Of a stretch of DNA of 64,000 nucleotides, positions 2,706 to 39,396 are shown one piece after another. The notes below the pieces were generated by a model. It made no database searches and had not been told where the DNA came from. It saw only the letters and a list, made by a program, of their open reading frames with translations. Every line of letters begins with the position of its first letter. Position 1 is the first letter of the stretch. The stretch is from Escherichia phage vB_ESM-pEJ01, in the sequence record OP114734.1, one strand, 5' to 3'. The position numbers and the translations under genes were made by a program.

Positions 2706-3260
2706 ATGCTCTTTTCTTTCTTCCCTGCCATAGAATACAACGGCAAGATGATTACTGACATTGTGCGCAATTACCGCGCATATTTCAACGCAATAATTTC
2801 TGATTATAACATACAAACATATTACATTCAAGGTAGTCCACGACCGGAACAGGTTGCATATGAAGTATACGGAAACCAGCAACTTTATTGGATCTTGCTG
2901 ATGCTTAATGACGTATACGATCCGTTTCATGACTGGATCACCGATCAAGAGACAGCATATGAATCAGCCGAACAACGATATGCAAATGTAGGAGGAAATC
3001 AAGTATTATATCACGTTGATATTGACGGAAACAAGTATTGGAATCTTACCGAATATCCGAAAGGATCAAGCAATTGGTACGACAAAGGGGATATTCATCA
3101 CCGTCATTTGCAGTTTCATGGTGCACTGTCGGCGGTAGACACACTGGAAGATGCGATCCTCCGCAACGAGGAACGACGCAAGATCAAGATCATAGATCCT
3201 ACACAAATTAAACAATTTATTAACGCATTCATTCGAGAAATGGAAAAGGCTGATGTGTAA
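2706..3260 (+). CDS. 53: baseplate wedge protein gp53
   Basis: N-terminus MLF.FF..IEY and motifs YYIKGSPRPE, YGN.QLYW, KIKII match my recollection of T4 gp53; synteny. Confidence 0.85.
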   Translation: MLFSFFPAIEYNGKMITDIVRNYRAYFNAIISDYNIQTYYIQGSPRPEQVAYEVYGNQQLYWILLMLNDVYDPFHDWITDQETAYESAEQRYANVGGNQVLYHVDIDGNKYWNLTEYPKGSSNWYDKGDIHHRHLQFHGALSAVDTLEDAILRNEERRKIKIIDPTQIKQFINAFIREMEKADV

Positions 3261-3271
3261 GGTGATTAATT

Positions 3272-5071
3272 ATGCTAATGTTTAATAACTCCGTTAAATG
3301 GTTTACCGGAATTGTAGAAAACAGGGAAGACCCATTAATGTTAGGCCGAGTTCAGGTTAGGATTCATGGTATACATCCTTCGCTATCCGCACACGGTGAC
3401 ATTCAAGGTCTTCCAACCGAAGATCTATTATGGATTACTCCAGTACAAGATATTACAAGCGCGGCGATCTCCGGTATAGGTCAAAGCCCTACTGGTATTG
3501 TTGAAGGTTCAATGGTATTTGGTTTGGCCTTAGATGAACGTTATTTAAACTGCGTTATTCTGGGTACTATTGCCGGACAATATACAGAGAAACCACTCAC
3601 TACAGAAGGTTTTTGCGACCCTTCTGGTGCATATCCGCGTTATATTGGTAATGATGTTAATATTCTTGCTCGTGGTGGTATTAACCCAGAAACCGGACAA
3701 ACAACAAAACCTGATAGTGTCTATATTCGAGATGAAAACACTGGAGTTGCAGTAAATCCAGACGACGAGCCATTAGACCAAATTCCGGTTGACGATAACC
3801 CAGAATACACAATAGAAAAAATGCTGCGGGGCGATGAGGGATATCGCGAGAAATGGTATCTTGATTCAGAAGGATATCCGACAATAGGCATCGGGCATTT
3901 GATCATTTATAAGAAAACCAGTGATCTGGGTATTATCAATAATGAACTTTCTAAGCTGGTAGGGCGTGAAGTTACAAACGGAAGACTTACCGCCGAAGAA
4001 GTTAGCAAAGTATTTGCTGACGATATAGAAAAGACTCGCCGTGATATGCGTAAACATCCACGCATTGCACCAGTTTATAATAAATGTAATGCTTCTCGTC
4101 GTATGGCATTAGAAAACATGGCGTTTCAAATGGGCGTAGGCGGATTGGGTAAATTTAAAAATAGTCTCGCTGCAATGTTAGCAGAAGACTGGAAAAAAGC
4201 CTATGATGGATTGCGTCAATCAGTATGGGCTAATCAAACTCCAGGACGTTCTAGCCGTGTTTCTAAAATTATTCTTACTGGTAACTTAGAATCATATGGC
4301 GTAATTGCTCCAAAGAAAGAGGAATCAATTTCGGATGATCCGCGAGCACGTTTGAGAAATGCCCGTATTGCTGCCTATAAGACGCAGAGAGCAGAAGAAG
4401 ACCCAGAAGCACCGTTTACCCCACAAGACACACGAATCATGTTTAAAGAGCCTAAGAGTTCGTATTCTGCAAGGTATCCATATAACCATGTGTACGAGTC
4501 AGAGAGCGGTCATATTATCGAGATTGATGATACTCCTTCTCATGAGCGATATCATCGTAAACATCCTTCTGGTACATTTGAAGAAACCAGACCGGACGGA
4601 ACGAGGGTAGAAAAGATTGAAGGCGATGATTATCTGATCGTTAAACAAGGCCGGAAAGTAAACGTCAAGGGTAATTTGCAAGTTGTTGTTGAAGGTGACG
4701 CGCAAGTTTATTATATGGGTAATGTGATGCAAACCGTTGATGGTAACGTCACTGAATTTATTCGTGGCAATGTTAATCAGACCGTTGAAGGTACTGCTAA
4801 CATGCATGTTGTTGGTGATGTTATCGCACAGCTTGACGCTAATTTGACGGCTAACGTCAAGGGTAATGCTGAATTAATGATCGATGGTAACACTACCGAA
4901 ACAATTAAAGGTAACTATGATTTAACCGTTGAGGGTAATTTTAATATGACAGTCAATGGCACTAAATCAGATCAGGTTAATGGTGACTGGTCCCGTAATT
5001 GTGGTGCAAGCGTTAAAGATATTGCATCTGGTACAGTTAAAATTGATGGTAGCCGTATTGATCTTGGGTGA
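3272..5071 (+). CDS. 5: baseplate central spike / tail lysozyme gp5
   Basis: N-terminal OB region (WF.G.VE...LGRV.VR.HG), central T4-lysozyme-like domain (EGY..KWYLDSEGYPTIGIGHL), C-terminal beta-helix octapeptide repeats (V.G.). Confidence 0.95.
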   Translation: MLMFNNSVKWFTGIVENREDPLMLGRVQVRIHGIHPSLSAHGDIQGLPTEDLLWITPVQDITSAAISGIGQSPTGIVEGSMVFGLALDERYLNCVILGTIAGQYTEKPLTTEGFCDPSGAYPRYIGNDVNILARGGINPETGQTTKPDSVYIRDENTGVAVNPDDEPLDQIPVDDNPEYTIEKMLRGDEGYREKWYLDSEGYPTIGIGHLIIYKKTSDLGIINNELSKLVGREVTNGRLTAEEVSKVFADDIEKTRRDMRKHPRIAPVYNKCNASRRMALENMAFQMGVGGLGKFKNSLAAMLAEDWKKAYDGLRQSVWANQTPGRSSRVSKIILTGNLESYGVIAPKKEESISDDPRARLRNARIAAYKTQRAEEDPEAPFTPQDTRIMFKEPKSSYSARYPYNHVYESESGHIIEIDDTPSHERYHRKHPSGTFEETRPDGTRVEKIEGDDYLIVKQGRKVNVKGNLQVVVEGDAQVYYMGNVMQTVDGNVTEFIRGNVNQTVEGTANMHVVGDVIAQLDANLTANVKGNAELMIDGNTTETIKGNYDLTVEGNFNMTVNGTKSDQVNGDWSRNCGASVKDIASGTVKIDGSRIDLG

Positions 5072-34960: not shown

Positions 34961-35548
34961 CTAAATATCTAACCAAGACAAGTCAGATCCGCCCAAGATT
35001 TTTTCGACGGCGGATCTATTTTCTTGATGATATAAGTTAAAACATGGTATCCCATGTCTACGGGCAACATAAACAGCAATTCGAGTTCCTCCCGAAACGA
35101 TTCCATTAACTTCTTTCGCCCAGAATATCACACAATCTACAGGATCATCAAGTGTCTCACCTAAGACTTGAGCAACATTTCTAGAAAACAGATTTTGCAT
35201 GTATAACGGTATAGAACGAGGATTATCATAAACGTGTTCTAATTCATCCATCGCCAGATTCTTTTGTTCTAAGGTTTGCCATGCAATAACATCATGACCG
35301 TTATGCTTATGGTCATAAAACTTCCAAATTGGAATGAAAATTTTTCTATAATCTGGATCGTAATACTTCATGAAAGCATTGTCCATACCGTAAGCCCCTC
35401 CAGAATGCGCTACAACGCGATTTTCTGACAATACCCTCCCAATGGTACTAGCCATTATCAAAATGTCGTTAGGCGCTTTTCTAGAGCCTATCAAAGCACA
35501 TCTACGAAGTGGTTTTACTCCAAATAGATCTTGTAACTGGTCAAACAT
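34961..35548 (-). CDS. DprA/Smf-like (SLOG-type Rossmann) domain protein
   Basis: ALIGSRKAP...RVVAHSGGAYGMD resembles the DprA motif (GSR...SG.A.GID); second glycine-rich segment VSGGTRIAVYVARRHGIPCF; RBS GGAGGA. Confidence 0.55.
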   Translation of the reverse strand: MFDQLQDLFGVKPLRRCALIGSRKAPNDILIMASTIGRVLSENRVVAHSGGAYGMDNAFMKYYDPDYRKIFIPIWKFYDHKHNGHDVIAWQTLEQKNLAMDELEHVYDNPRSIPLYMQNLFSRNVAQVLGETLDDPVDCVIFWAKEVNGIVSGGTRIAVYVARRHGIPCFNLYHQENRSAVEKILGGSDLSWLDI

Positions 35549-36446: not shown

Positions 36447-36722
36447 TCAGGACATTGCCCGTTTGAATGCGTCCATTATAACAGTGTTATTTGGCTTGTC
36501 AACACGTTTTTGAACTTTATTTTTAAATTTTTTGTTGATGTGGTGTTTACGATAAACAACCTTTTCACGATTGGCGTAAGACTCTCGTGCATCTTTTACC
36601 ATCAACCATGCCTTAGCCGCATCTTGTCCGCTGATCCCGCCAATCTTCTTAGCAATATCAACAAAATTAAGACCGTGGTCTTCGCGTAGCATGTAAACCA
36701 TTAACGCTGTTTTCTTGTCCAT
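36447..36722 (-). CDS. hypothetical basic protein (91 aa)
   Basis: lysine-rich C-terminus; abuts the upstream ORF. Confidence 0.45.
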   Translation of the reverse strand: MDKKTALMVYMLREDHGLNFVDIAKKIGGISGQDAAKAWLMVKDARESYANREKVVYRKHHINKKFKNKVQKRVDKPNNTVIMDAFKRAMS

Positions 36723-36919
36723 TACTTCGCCTCATTGACGATTAACAGGATAGTGATCAGTACCGGAAACTGGATCATGACAGTACCAAAAAACCGGATA
36801 AACGCATTTTCTGACTTCCACACATGACATGCGACTAGCTGATAGACCATTGTTGCAACCAAAGCCAGAAAATACATCTCGATTGGTGCTTCTTTGATCA
36901 ATCGTACAATCTCATTCAT
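36722..36919 (-). CDS. small predicted membrane protein (65 aa)
   Basis: two hydrophobic segments; downstream of an early-type promoter. Confidence 0.45.
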   Translation of the reverse strand: MNEIVRLIKEAPIEMYFLALVATMVYQLVACHVWKSENAFIRFFGTVMIQFPVLITILLIVNEAK

Positions 36920-37046
36920 ACTTCACCTCATACATTCATAAACACAACAACGAATAATACAGTAACAGTTATCAACGCCATTTTCAACCCCATATTCATA
37001 ATATTTTCTTCTCCTCACTATGGACAGTAGCATGTCGATGCGTGCC

Positions 37047-37074
37047 ATTATAGGCATCTAAATCGCTCTGTCAA
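37047..37074 (-). promoter_or_regulatory. sigma70-like promoter (TTGACA-N16-TATAAT) downstream of hoc
   Basis: - strand -35 at 37069-37074 and -10 at 37047-37052; directed at the small ORFs at 36.4-36.9 kb. Confidence 0.55.
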
Positions 37075-37086
37075 GCACAAAAACAA

Positions 37087-37114
37087 AAAAGCCACCCCGA
37101 AGGATGGCTGATAG
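37087..37114 (-). terminator. intrinsic terminator after hoc
   Basis: - strand hairpin with UUCG loop (AGCCAUCC-UUCG-GGGUGGCU) followed by UUUUUU. Confidence 0.65.
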
Positions 37115-37120
37115 ATTTCA

Positions 37121-38335
37121 TTAAGCAGGATGCGTTTCACGAATGCGTAGAACTCGCTCTAACGTATCTCGGTCCAGTTTATGTAACTCTTTGGAATGAT
37201 ACATGAAACCATTGCGAGATTCCATGCAAGTGCAGTCACTATATTTTTCTTCCGCTGCCGCGATTGTCTCCAGATCTTTGGCGTACTTGCTGGTTGAATA
37301 AACTTCTCTGTTACGCCACTCTAACCCAGCCTCATTGAATTTAACAATCTCGTCAAATACCCACCATCCAATGTAGATAAATGAAGTTTTGCGCCACGGG
37401 ATCGGGTGTACGTAACGAAACATTTTAACAACTTCCATTGAACATTTTCTACTTGTACTTGTTGCAACTTCTACTGTTTCATCTTCGATCTGTTGATATA
37501 GTTTAGCAACACACCAGAATTTGGCTGTGTCATCGTAAGTAGCACTCTCTTTGAACAGATGACCGTCTGGAGTGATAGAAAATCCTTCCAGTGCTTCGCC
37601 AACCTCACTACCGATCAGAGTCGGTGGTATTTGCCCTTCGCGCTGCAAATACCAGTTATATTTGATCGTCAAATTAGGCATACCGCTAGAATCGCCTACA
37701 ATGTTCTCTGACACAACATAATTAAGTAAGATCTCATTACCTAGTGCCACGGTCTTTGATTCCACCACATCCTGATCTACGTTCATTGTTGCCAGCATGA
37801 TTTTAGTCGATGCGCTAGCGGCTGAATCTTCCGACTCACCCCACACTTTTACAGTATACACGCCGTTTTTATCTGCTGTAAATTCTTGGATCGTAATATC
37901 CTTTTTTGTGTCTATAACGCCATCGCCCTTACTCCAACTATAATGTAGTTCATAGTTGTCTGATGGAGTCTTCCCACCCGAAAATTTTACTGTTGCATGT
38001 AATTCTACGTTTGTTTGTGATGATACGTAGAAATGCTGCGGTTCGGTGATATTTACGATTAATTCAGCTTCTTCAATGAGGAAAACTTCAGATTCTACTG
38101 ATGTCATCGTATCGGTATCCTGTACCGTTACTTTATAGCTACCCGCATTTTCACTTGTTGCGTCTGCTACAGTTAGCGTAGCTGTGCTATTTTCATGCGG
38201 TTGGTCGTCTTTTGTCCATGTATATGTCAAATTGCTGGGTAATGGTTCGTCACCCGCTACAGTCGCCGTTAAGGTGAAACCATCTCCAGCAAGAAAACAT
38301 CTTTTGTCAGATTTAATTGATACTGTGAAAGTCAT
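37121..38335 (-). CDS. hoc: highly immunogenic outer capsid protein Hoc
   Basis: N-terminus MTFTV; Ig-like repeats; C-terminal capsid-binding region YVHPIPWRKTSFIYIGWWVFDEIVK...ESRNGF matches T4 Hoc (YVHPLPHR...GWWVMDEIQK...ESRNGY). Confidence 0.85.
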   Translation of the reverse strand: MTFTVSIKSDKRCFLAGDGFTLTATVAGDEPLPSNLTYTWTKDDQPHENSTATLTVADATSENAGSYKVTVQDTDTMTSVESEVFLIEEAELIVNITEPQHFYVSSQTNVELHATVKFSGGKTPSDNYELHYSWSKGDGVIDTKKDITIQEFTADKNGVYTVKVWGESEDSAASASTKIMLATMNVDQDVVESKTVALGNEILLNYVVSENIVGDSSGMPNLTIKYNWYLQREGQIPPTLIGSEVGEALEGFSITPDGHLFKESATYDDTAKFWCVAKLYQQIEDETVEVATSTSRKCSMEVVKMFRYVHPIPWRKTSFIYIGWWVFDEIVKFNEAGLEWRNREVYSTSKYAKDLETIAAAEEKYSDCTCMESRNGFMYHSKELHKLDRDTLERVLRIRETHPA

Positions 38336-38504
38336 ATAAAGCCACTCCCATAGAAAATCCGAATTTAATTAATTGAAATAGTTGATTGCCATCAACCAGA
38401 TAACCATTGCGAGATTCCAATACATGAGTATTAGAATAGTGATGCCACGAGGCCGAAATAGTATCGATCTCGTCTGGGTATTTGTTCTGTTTGATGTAAT
38501 ACAT
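38313..38504 (-). CDS. small ORF resembling the Hoc C-terminal tail (possible remnant)
   Basis: contains ESRNGYLVDGNQLFQ, like the Hoc C-terminus; in frame with the upstream inh-like ORF but separated by two stop codons. Confidence 0.3.
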   Translation of the reverse strand: MYYIKQNKYPDEIDTISASWHHYSNTHVLESRNGYLVDGNQLFQLIKFGFSMGVALYDFHSIN

Positions 38505-38600
38505 TGATTTTGTTAGACATGTAGTATCCTCTTTTTAATTGCATAACGGAACTACAATTAAAATTATAACAAATATTTCACAACTTTTATCACCCAAAAA

Positions 38601-39326
38601 TTACTTGAGTGTGTGGAATTGGCTGTGTTTAGTCTCTCGCACCTTGACAGACCCATCGCGTTTGATATAATAGATCAGCGACTTGAGGGTGTCGTGTACA
38701 TACGCGTGCGGGAAACGTTCTGGATACTTCTTCCAATCTGGAGTATTAACGATCCAGTCGAAAATCCACCACGGGCAGGAGTAGTAACCACGACCGCCAC
38801 CGATCAAGCAAATGGTCGGACGGAAGCCAGTAAGATCGCAAAATGAATCAGTGTCATGTGCTGGGGAACGATGCTCTGCTTCGTTAGAGAAAATGTTGGC
38901 TACCGGAGATTCCACTTTAACTTCCGGTGCTTCTTCAACATATGACTTAACTTCTTCGACCACTGGTTCAACTGCCGGAGATTCTTCTTTTGTTTCTTCA
39001 ATGACGATCTCAGGTTCTTTCATTGCTTCAACCAGAGACGGATCAACTTCGTCGAATACCACTTTATCATCTGCGGTGTCTGCTGCCAGAATAAGATCGT
39101 TAATACTGGTTCCTTCCGCCGGAGTTTCTTCTTCCATTTCGGAAGCCAGTTTAGTTAATTCTGTTTCTACGAACTCGATCATGTTCTCTAGCGAGAGCGT
39201 CTTTTTGACCTTTATATCAAATTGTTTTGCGTAGTCCGCTAATTCTGTTTTAGCGACTTTCTGTGATTCTTTGTCGTCGGACGCCGCAATAGCGCGGAGT
39301 TCTTCGAAATATTCTTTATCAAACAT
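38601..39326 (-). CDS. Inh-like head protein (by position) with acidic low-complexity centre and Hoc-like C-terminal motif
   Basis: position between hoc and uvsW as for T4 inh; E/P/V-rich acidic linker; C-terminal CPWWIFDWIV resembles Hoc GWWVFDEIV. Confidence 0.45.
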   Translation of the reverse strand: MFDKEYFEELRAIAASDDKESQKVAKTELADYAKQFDIKVKKTLSLENMIEFVETELTKLASEMEEETPAEGTSINDLILAADTADDKVVFDEVDPSLVEAMKEPEIVIEETKEESPAVEPVVEEVKSYVEEAPEVKVESPVANIFSNEAEHRSPAHDTDSFCDLTGFRPTICLIGGGRGYYSCPWWIFDWIVNTPDWKKYPERFPHAYVHDTLKSLIYYIKRDGSVKVRETKHSQFHTLK

Positions 39327-39352: not shown

Positions 39353-39360
39353 TATAAATA
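39353..39360 (+). promoter_or_regulatory. T4-type late promoter TATAAATA upstream of uvsW
   Basis: exact TATAAATA 37 nt upstream of the proposed uvsW ATG. Confidence 0.55.
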
Positions 39361-39396
39361 TTTGTATACTGTATTTATTGAGTGAGGCTATTCGCT

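Follow-up and report, generated by a model that had tools for sequence, protein, structure and literature searches.

The closest described relatives of the locus treated here come from work on the outer capsid protein Hoc. Fokine et al. 2023 (PMC10385173) described the Hoc capsid-binding domain (residues 281-376 in T4 Hoc, PDB 8T1X), giant Hoc proteins, phages with two Hoc proteins, and the fusion of the domain to other cargo; Inh is not mentioned there. Phages with two Hoc proteins, one of them giant, are Serratia phage Muldoon, with 1174 and 314 amino acids (aa), and Enterobacter phage PG7 (PMC10385173). The annotation of T4 Inh (gene inh/lip) names it a minor head protein and an inhibitor of the prohead protease gp21, and says nothing on a Hoc-type domain. 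Here we analyze the inh-hoc region of Escherichia phage vB_ESM-pEJ01 (sequence record OP114734.1), positions 37,121 to 39,326 of a stretch of 64,000 nucleotides (nt), the whole of which is called the window. We regard it as highly probable that two features of different origin meet here: the tail of Inh would be an old, diverged paralog of the Hoc capsid-binding domain, and a 63-aa open reading frame (ORF) next to it would be the stump of a deleted second hoc gene (hoc2).

On the minus strand inh (38601-39326, 241 aa) is followed by the 63-aa ORF (38313-38504) and then by hoc (37121-38335, 404 aa), and uvsW at 39382 is divergent from inh. This layout agrees with the T4 order uvsW / (segE) / inh / hoc, and inh and hoc are adjacent in most T4-like genomes examined. 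The region of 2.4 kilobases (kb) is 97-99% identical to its counterpart in 50-odd members of the genus Krischvirus, all of them Escherichia or Shigella phages (RB49, Phi1, JSE, GEC-3S and others), and by this sequence identity the source of the window is a Krischvirus, an RB49/Phi1-like T4-type phage.

A preliminary description had pointed out the motifs GWWVFDEIV and ESRNGF in Hoc, CPWWIFDWIV in the 241-aa ORF and ESRNGY in the 63-aa ORF, and these are all present. The 241-aa and the 63-aa ORF also share a frame with exactly two stops between them, as seen in a one-frame translation of 38313-39326; this sharing is a coincidence that is expected one time in three. The description had further proposed a second Hoc-type module that is split or decaying, with a sequencing error as a possible cause. 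A decaying module does adjoin inh, but the two ORFs are unrelated features and not the parts of one split module. More than 50 phages that were sequenced independently show the same arrangement (97-99% identity), and therefore it is not the product of a sequencing error. Alignments of the three C-terminal regions, which had been proposed as a check, gave a significant match of the 63-aa ORF to the Hoc tail (BLASTP E 5e-8, 36% identity, 39 aa), while the match of the window Inh to Hoc (E 0.058) is not significant alone.

The inh gene is complete. The protein is composed of an N-terminal helical domain (aa 1-66), an acidic linker predicted with low confidence (aa 67-160) and the C-terminal Hoc-type domain; residues 1-241 match positions 1-229 of the 229 positions of phrog_1051 (Inh, minor head protein inhibitor of protease; E 3e-76). 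T4 Inh (226 aa) aligns with it end to end at 47% identity and has the same architecture, the same position between uvsW and hoc, and the same C-terminus; 86 representatives of the family stop at this residue too. The T4 protein ends in ...LIRETRNSSFVTLK and the window protein in ...KVRETKHSQFHTLK, with FHTLK directly before the stop. Every T4-like Inh that was collected, from genera including Tequatrovirus, Gelderlandvirus, Pseudotevenvirus, Slopekvirus, Lazarusvirus, Tulanevirus and Ceceduovirus, ends at most 2 residues from the same point. A phmmer search with the Inh C-terminus as query against 1.84 billion representative proteins retrieved 87 clusters, all of 123-279 aa, with the module at the extreme C-terminus in nearly all of them. 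The window Inh thereby belongs to its class by its full-length match, the conserved C-terminus and the location between uvsW and hoc; inhibition of gp21, as a biochemical property, is known from the T4 annotation only. A counterpart of the ESRNG loop exists within Inh itself and reads RETKHSQ, starting at R230. Judged from these comparisons, inh is not interrupted. The record of phage vB_Eco_TB34 (OX001802; L002:3071-3795) divides inh into two annotated ORFs (3071-3652 and 3658-3795) and splits uvsW too; these splits are probably assembly frameshift errors rather than biology.

The completeness of inh bears on the idea that one second Hoc-type module of inh has been divided by stops, be it through decay, a sequencing error, or a programmed read-through that joins both ORFs. 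The two ORFs do lie in one frame, 32 codons and two stops apart, with the WW motif in the first and ESRNG in the second. Against this stand the family-wide C-terminus at which Inh ends, the loop that it already possesses, and the identical arrangement in more than 50 genomes. If a gene had been split, the downstream ORF should extend the homology of the upstream protein; the 63-aa ORF instead resembles the end of another gene, and BLASTP finds nothing significant between it and Inh (E 7). The spacer is homologous to the upstream region and the start codon of hoc2, not to the coding sequence of a capsid-binding domain. We consider a split module next to impossible, and the alignment with Shigella phage JK32 described below refutes both it and a programmed read-through.

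The C-terminal domain of Inh (aa 168-241; 38604-38825, minus strand) contains strand β1 PTICLIG, strand β2 GYYSC, the PWW helix (W186, W187), DWK, a long helix, strand β3 VKVRE, the loop TKHS and strand β4 FHTLK. In most Inh proteins its loop has the sequence RE(S/T)RNS, compared to RETKHSQ in the window phage. Protein-homolog searches gave 2 matches for the 63-aa ORF, 59 for the Inh tail (nearly all of them fragments from Escherichia coli) and 1 for the Hoc tail; the sequence diversity for the comparisons of Inh and Hoc was gathered from phage records and IMG/VR. Neither Pfam nor NCBIfam holds a model for the Hoc capsid-binding domain or for Inh.

The window Inh and the window Hoc match by BLASTP in WWIFDWIV only. 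Such a match of 8 residues, together with the E-value of 1.3 between T4 Inh and T4 Hoc and an Inh-Hoc identity of about 18-20%, is what could be expected from convergence or a chance resemblance of short motifs. The claim of a Hoc-type C-terminal module in the inh-like gene was nonetheless borne out by profile comparison, by searches with hidden Markov models (HMMs) and by BLASTP in Aeromonas phages. In Aeromonas phage ZHF its own Inh and its own Hoc match significantly (E 2e-8, 35% identity over 66 aa, from VPYWIHDWM, whose PYW corresponds to WW, to ESRN), and the window Inh matches ZHF Hoc with E 1e-5. The HMMs of 13 Inh tails and of 25 Hoc capsid-binding domains retrieve each other's family among 1491 six-frame ORFs; no unrelated hit appeared in these reciprocal searches up to E 10, only Hoc, Inh and stumps of the kind discussed below. 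By hhalign the two families are related with a probability of 97% (E 9.3e-11, 57 columns), and their joint alignment is collinear from β1 to β4. Both have the second Trp of the WW pair, whose first position is W or Y, with Asp and Ile after it; they also share the Trp in (D/E)W(K/R) as well as E-x-R-N. A significant sequence relation to Hoc capsid-binding domains is thus found for the Inh tail as well as for the 63-aa ORF.

The predicted structure points in the same direction. A single-sequence AlphaFold model of the Inh tail reached a mean predicted local distance difference test (pLDDT) value of 47, which made a Foldseek search meaningless, and it was replaced by a model built on an alignment of 86 sequences with pLDDT 94-98 for residues 161-241. 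This model shows the predicted topology β1-β2, helix 1, one or more further helices, β3, loop and β4, and the order of its elements is the one described for T4 Hoc. When it was used as Foldseek query, the solved Hoc domain was the top match among 48,164 chains. A collinear match over about 60-75 residues that is significant by profile comparison, significance between single proteins in Aeromonas phages, HMM searches that return no other ORF, matching predicted folds, and the neighborhood of inh and hoc in most T4-like genomes examined all argue against convergence, and we hold it to be very improbable.

Several observations weigh against this reading of the Inh tail. The Foldseek E-value of 0.55 is not significant by itself. 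The loop Asn, present in at least 90% of the Inh family, is His in the window protein, and the Arg of other examined Inh proteins is Lys, so that the loop reads TKHS. Several of the residues by which Hoc contacts gp23 are not conserved in Inh: relative to the T4 Hoc domain the YVHP strand, His299/Arg300 and Trp306 are replaced, and in β1 and the β1-β2 loop, where Tyr293, His295 and Arg300 (YVHP..R) would be expected, Inh has PTICLIG or NLQLIG. The context differs as well, as the Inh domain follows a helical domain and an acidic linker, whereas the Hoc domain follows immunoglobulin (Ig)-like domains. Taken together, the C-terminal ~75 residues are, on the evidence of profiles and predicted structure, a distant homolog of the Hoc capsid-binding domain across the whole T4-like Inh family. 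A paper linking Inh to Hoc was not found in the searchable literature; older subscription papers lie outside it, so an earlier notice is possible.

Downstream of its major capsid gene, Vibrio phage VH7D encodes a hypothetical protein of 165 aa (L033:3090-3587) that matches the last ~34 residues of the Inh module (HMM E 2.9e-10), that is, helix, β3, loop and β4 only. It may be a shortened or more diverged Inh of schizo-T4 phages.

The 63-aa ORF leads to a different gene. The Hoc capsid-binding-domain HMM matches it with E 2.8e-12, at HMM positions 49-90 only; ESRNG is present, WW is absent, and the region of β1 and the β1-β2 loop is wholly missing. Compared with the T4 Hoc domain, only the last ~37 residues are left. 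No Ig-like domain was found in it (no family in Pfam). A metagenomic homolog (P0002) extends the ORF N-terminally with a sequence resembling Hoc '..DEI..NEGLNW', and on its contig this homolog forms the last part of a long reading frame that codes for Ig-like domains and lies directly upstream of hoc. An intact hoc2 upstream of hoc exists in a metagenomic relative (L004) and on an IMG/VR contig (L010).

By tblastn six Krischvirus records contain a full second Hoc gene between inh and hoc, namely JK32, Brandy, SSG23, SFHK24, UPWr_E1 and G2248. Hoc2 of Shigella phage JK32 has 846 aa, in which a complete capsid-binding domain comes after Ig_3, I-set and PKD-like domains. It thereby has what makes a Hoc decoration protein, i.e. 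Ig-like domains and a complete capsid-binding domain in one frame, and the 63-aa ORF has not. In total 6 out of 58 Krischvirus records possess hoc2 in full or nearly full length and 52 out of 58 a stump, with identical outer alignment limits in 51; in this megablast count 4 records align at 80% or more of the query, UPWr_E1 and G2248 being more diverged. The stumps are of two types, about 12 records with the Phi1 type and about 40 with the type of RB49 and the window. JK32-type Krischviruses resemble Muldoon and PG7 in having a giant Hoc2 beside an ordinary Hoc. The window differs from both in that the giant paralog is deleted to a stump, and such remnants are not described in PMC10385173.

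Giant Hoc genes also occur beyond Krischvirus. Salmonella phage vB_SnwM_CGG4-1 (Gelderlandvirus; L030:4632-7210) has a short Hoc of 279 aa followed by a giant Hoc-like gene of ~944 aa, and it carries a homing endonuclease between inh and uvsW, as T4 does with segE. In RB43 (L027:5293-5796) the capsid-binding domain is located at the N-terminus of Hoc.

Two blocks of alignment with JK32 are seen on the minus strand of the window between 38660 and 38290. The first (90% identity) runs from the 3' end of inh through the intergenic region with the Shine-Dalgarno sequence to nt 32 of hoc2, and the second (86% identity) contains the last 116 nt of hoc2, the ribosome-binding site of hoc and the hoc start. 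In JK32 the blocks are 2393 nt apart and have an AAC microhomology in common, which is found in the window at the deletion junction (38489-38491). The number 2393 is not a multiple of 3; the deletion shifts the frame, and it is only for this reason that the 63-aa ORF enters the frame of the Hoc2 tail.

All parts of the remnant can be located on the minus strand of the window. The former hoc2 Shine-Dalgarno sequence AAGAGGA lies at 38527-38533 and is conserved in JK32. The 5' stump (38489-38520) consists of the start codon at 38518-38520 and 10 codons (MSNKINVLHQ, compared to MSDKINILHQ in JK32; 90% identity). The 96 nt between inh and the 63-aa ORF are the conserved hoc2 upstream region, its Shine-Dalgarno sequence and its first 10 codons. 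The 3' stump (38373-38491) represents the last ~38 codons of the Hoc2 capsid-binding domain (..KYPDEIDTISASWHHYSNTHVLESRNGYLVDGNQLF; BLASTN against JK32 hoc2 86% identity, E 2e-70). The former stop at 38373-38375 is changed from TAA to CAA, so that the 63-aa ORF reads through it, and the 5' arm of the JK32 hoc2 terminator hairpin is deleted. The 63-aa ORF (equivalent to RB49p168.2) is chimeric: it begins at an internal out-of-frame ATG of the 5' stump, joins the Hoc2-tail frame at the junction, and extends 23 nt beyond the start of hoc. Translation from the true hoc2 start codon gives a frame-shifted ORF of 29 aa (MSNKINVLHQTEQIPRRDRYYFGLVASLF; 38431-38520), which is the short form of the 54-aa Phi1 ORF168.1. 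In Phi1-type genomes the 5' part is longer by 75 nt, which the window has lost between two CAGAA repeats; their tail frame has no upstream start codon, and the annotated ORF168.1 is in the other frame.

These alignments show the history of the deletion. The ancestor had the order inh, hoc2, hoc, with hoc2 coding for a giant fiber of 846 aa made up of about eight Ig-like domains and a Hoc capsid-binding domain. The lineage of the window then suffered an internal deletion of ~2.39 kb relative to JK32 in two steps: ~2.32 kb in common with Phi1, and afterwards 75 nt between the CAGAA direct repeats. It spared the upstream region with the Shine-Dalgarno sequence as well as 10 codons at the start and ~37 at the end, the two coding parts being mutually out of frame. 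The mutation of the stop (TAA to CAA) and the loss of one arm of the terminator hairpin followed, and the 63-aa ORF is an accidental frame across the deletion scar. One could also read the series in the opposite direction, with the short state as the ancestral one, as it is found in 52 of the 58 records, and with JK32-like phages gaining hoc2 by insertion of an Ig-domain array into a small pre-existing ORF. Only a remnant would be expected to consist of a C-terminal half-domain that is not in frame with its own start. Moreover, the deletions form a nested two-step series from JK32 over Phi1 to the window with repeats at the junctions, the hoc2 stop and terminator are degraded in the short state, and giant second Hoc genes exist in other genera (Gelderlandvirus CGG4-1, Muldoon). 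An ancestral short state is, in our judgment, most improbable.

The PHROG families fit the loss of hoc2. The 63-aa ORF matches phrog_32100 (E 7e-47), a family of 'unknown function'. In JK32 Hoc2, phrog_19377 (the family of Phi1 ORF168.1, likewise of 'unknown function') matches aa 1-34 and phrog_32100 matches aa 809-846. By these matches phrog_32100 and phrog_19377, kept as separate orphan families, are the two ends of one deleted gene, hoc2, and the 63-aa ORF is the 3' stump of that gene, a case of ordinary gene decay and not a continuation of inh.

Could the stump still be of use as a functional mini-protein, i.e. a half-domain that competes with Hoc at the center of the capsomer or modulates Hoc loading, and that is kept by selection? 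No RB49-type stump sequence among those examined interrupts the ORF, its ESRNG loop is intact, it matches a PHROG family of its own, and capsid-binding-domain proteins that stand alone do exist. An example is the 91-aa Hoc-like protein of Klebsiella phage Matisse (L031:5322-5597), which is encoded beside a one-Ig Hoc of 177 aa (L031:4778-5311). The Matisse protein is however a complete domain, and the 63-aa ORF is incomplete: it is devoid of β1, β2 and the WW helix, which provide most of the gp23 contacts in T4 Hoc (PMC10385173). Direct reading of the sequence reveals no Shine-Dalgarno sequence before its ATG, and this ATG arose by substitution (ATATTT in JK32, ATGTAT in the window). In Phi1-type genomes no start codon precedes the tail frame at all.

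The pattern of substitutions was considered as a further argument. Over the 37 common codons the tails of intact hoc2 genes differ at 13-21 nucleotides and at 0-1 amino acids, indicating strong purifying selection on the intact gene. The four stump sequences in contrast have 4 polymorphic sites, all of them nonsynonymous, and the window stump, apart from its lost stop, deviates from JK32 by about 5 changes that are nonsynonymous and 4 that are synonymous. For the flanking genes in the same genome pairs the ratio of nonsynonymous to synonymous polymorphism (pN/pS) is 0.13-0.17 for inh and 0.37-0.55 for hoc. The substitutions in the stump fit relaxed constraint, as far as such small numbers can tell. 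With less than half a capsid-binding domain the hoc2 stump, including the 63-aa ORF, is most likely not functional, and a selected mini-protein is improbable. Three points speak for caution: the selection argument is based on few substitutions (4 polymorphisms), the 63-aa ORF or the 29-aa peptide may still be translated, and the stump is kept in 52 records, which could reflect recent common ancestry or some use.

A Hoc-like tail may suggest how Inh attaches to the phage head. By homology, Inh would dock on the capsomer of the major capsid protein gp23 via its Hoc-type domain; in Hoc this type of domain binds at the center of expanded gp23* hexamers. Since contact residues are replaced in Inh (among them Tyr293, His295 and Trp306), docking may differ in state or face from that of Hoc, and could for instance take place on the unexpanded prohead. 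The N-terminal consensus of the Inh family, MxDxxxIxE, seems similar to the I/L-x-E motifs that serve in T4 core proteins for cleavage and targeting. Two considerations oppose a docking like that of Hoc. The binding of Inh to gp23 is deduced from homology only, and a KEGG-based pathway description lists Inh as head-internal, which would not fit an external Hoc-like site; an internal location of Inh is possible.

As a speculative extension, which we consider rather doubtful as a whole, Inh might be a capsomer-docking protein whose domain anchors the helical, protease-directed N-terminus to prohead hexamers of gp23. This would make Hoc and Inh paralogous, stage-specific adaptors, and fragments of inh in E. 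coli that lack the domain would act as decoys or dominant-negatives against Krischviruses.

Such internal pieces of Krischvirus inh occur in 17 out of 5426 complete E. coli genomes and in many drafts, with 85-99% nucleotide identity (15 out of 17 at 95% or more). They comprise nt 41-505, 145-559, 250-559 or 250-505 of the gene, nt 145-559 corresponding to 38768-39182 of the window. One is on the EC24 chromosome (L034:9001-9415) and others are at L035:3494-4517, L036:3402-3842 and L011-L016. The pieces lack the Hoc-like domain, as they end at or just inside its start, and only the inh piece of these loci matches any phage record. In EC24, UTME-9 and PigCaeca_2 they are called as ORFs of 98-163 aa and lie in a prophage accessory region between endolysin and serine recombinase. 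The EC24 prophage adjoins a truncated ycdX and its inh piece is flanked by a GIY-YIG/T5orf172 nuclease-like ORF, and UTME-9 has two tandem copies. PADLOC returned nothing credible for the ORFs around these fragments. The pieces could code for a decoy or dominant-negative protein, or be debris of an exchange driven by homing endonucleases (T4 segE adjoins inh); both are possible.

The hoc gene itself codes for the head outer capsid (decoration) protein with three Ig-like domains and a C-terminal capsid-binding domain. Residues 1-304 match the RB49 Hoc crystal structure 3SHS (E 3e-190, essentially the same protein), residues 297-384 match the T4 Hoc chains 5VF3 and 8T1X (E 1e-15), and the protein matches phrog_1149 (Hoc-like head decoration; E 2e-81). 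Pfam reports PKD and Ig domains. The capsid-binding domain (~aa 306-390; 37166-37420, minus strand) contains YVHPIPWR, GWWVFDEI, EW and ESRNG when aligned with T4 and other Hoc proteins, in agreement with the description of T4 Hoc in PMC10385173. Downstream of hoc a terminator scan found an intrinsic terminator-like hairpin with T-run (37090-37109, minus strand; 8-bp stem with 5 GC pairs, then TTTTTGTTTT).

No exact T4 late-promoter motif (TATAAATA) is present on the minus strand between 36900 and 39500, and the sole copy in this interval is located at 39353 on the plus strand, facing uvsW. Two perfect sigma-70 consensus promoters (TTGACA, 16 nt, TATAAT; 12/12) were also observed, both probably early promoters. 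One (38644-38671, plus strand), with an extended TG, lies antisense in the 3' end of inh and is directed towards uvsW; the other (37047-37074, minus strand) lies just past the hoc terminator and is directed into small ORFs at 36447-37057. A 195-aa ORF of the Phi1 ORF164 family (34961-35548, minus strand) contains GSRKAP...HSGGAYGMD, which resembles DprA/Smf-type Rossmann proteins.

For the Krischviruses these results mean that two families of 'hypothetical proteins', phrog_32100 and phrog_19377, can be removed from the unknowns, and that giant second Hoc fibers are gained and lost within one phage genus, which bears on ideas of surface adherence through Hoc. For the T4-like phages in general, the homology between Inh and Hoc adds a modest new annotation, from which a mechanistic prediction follows that can be put to the test. 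With it, the C-terminal third of Inh, a T4 head protein on whose mode of action the searchable literature says little, receives a predicted fold and a likely role in binding. It also widens the natural cargo range of the Hoc binding domain, which is used in T4 display and vector engineering. If the proposed docking is true, it would provide a physical mechanism for the long-annotated but little-characterized 'inhibitor of prohead protease', and the same binding fold would serve Hoc and Inh at separate stages while the head matures.

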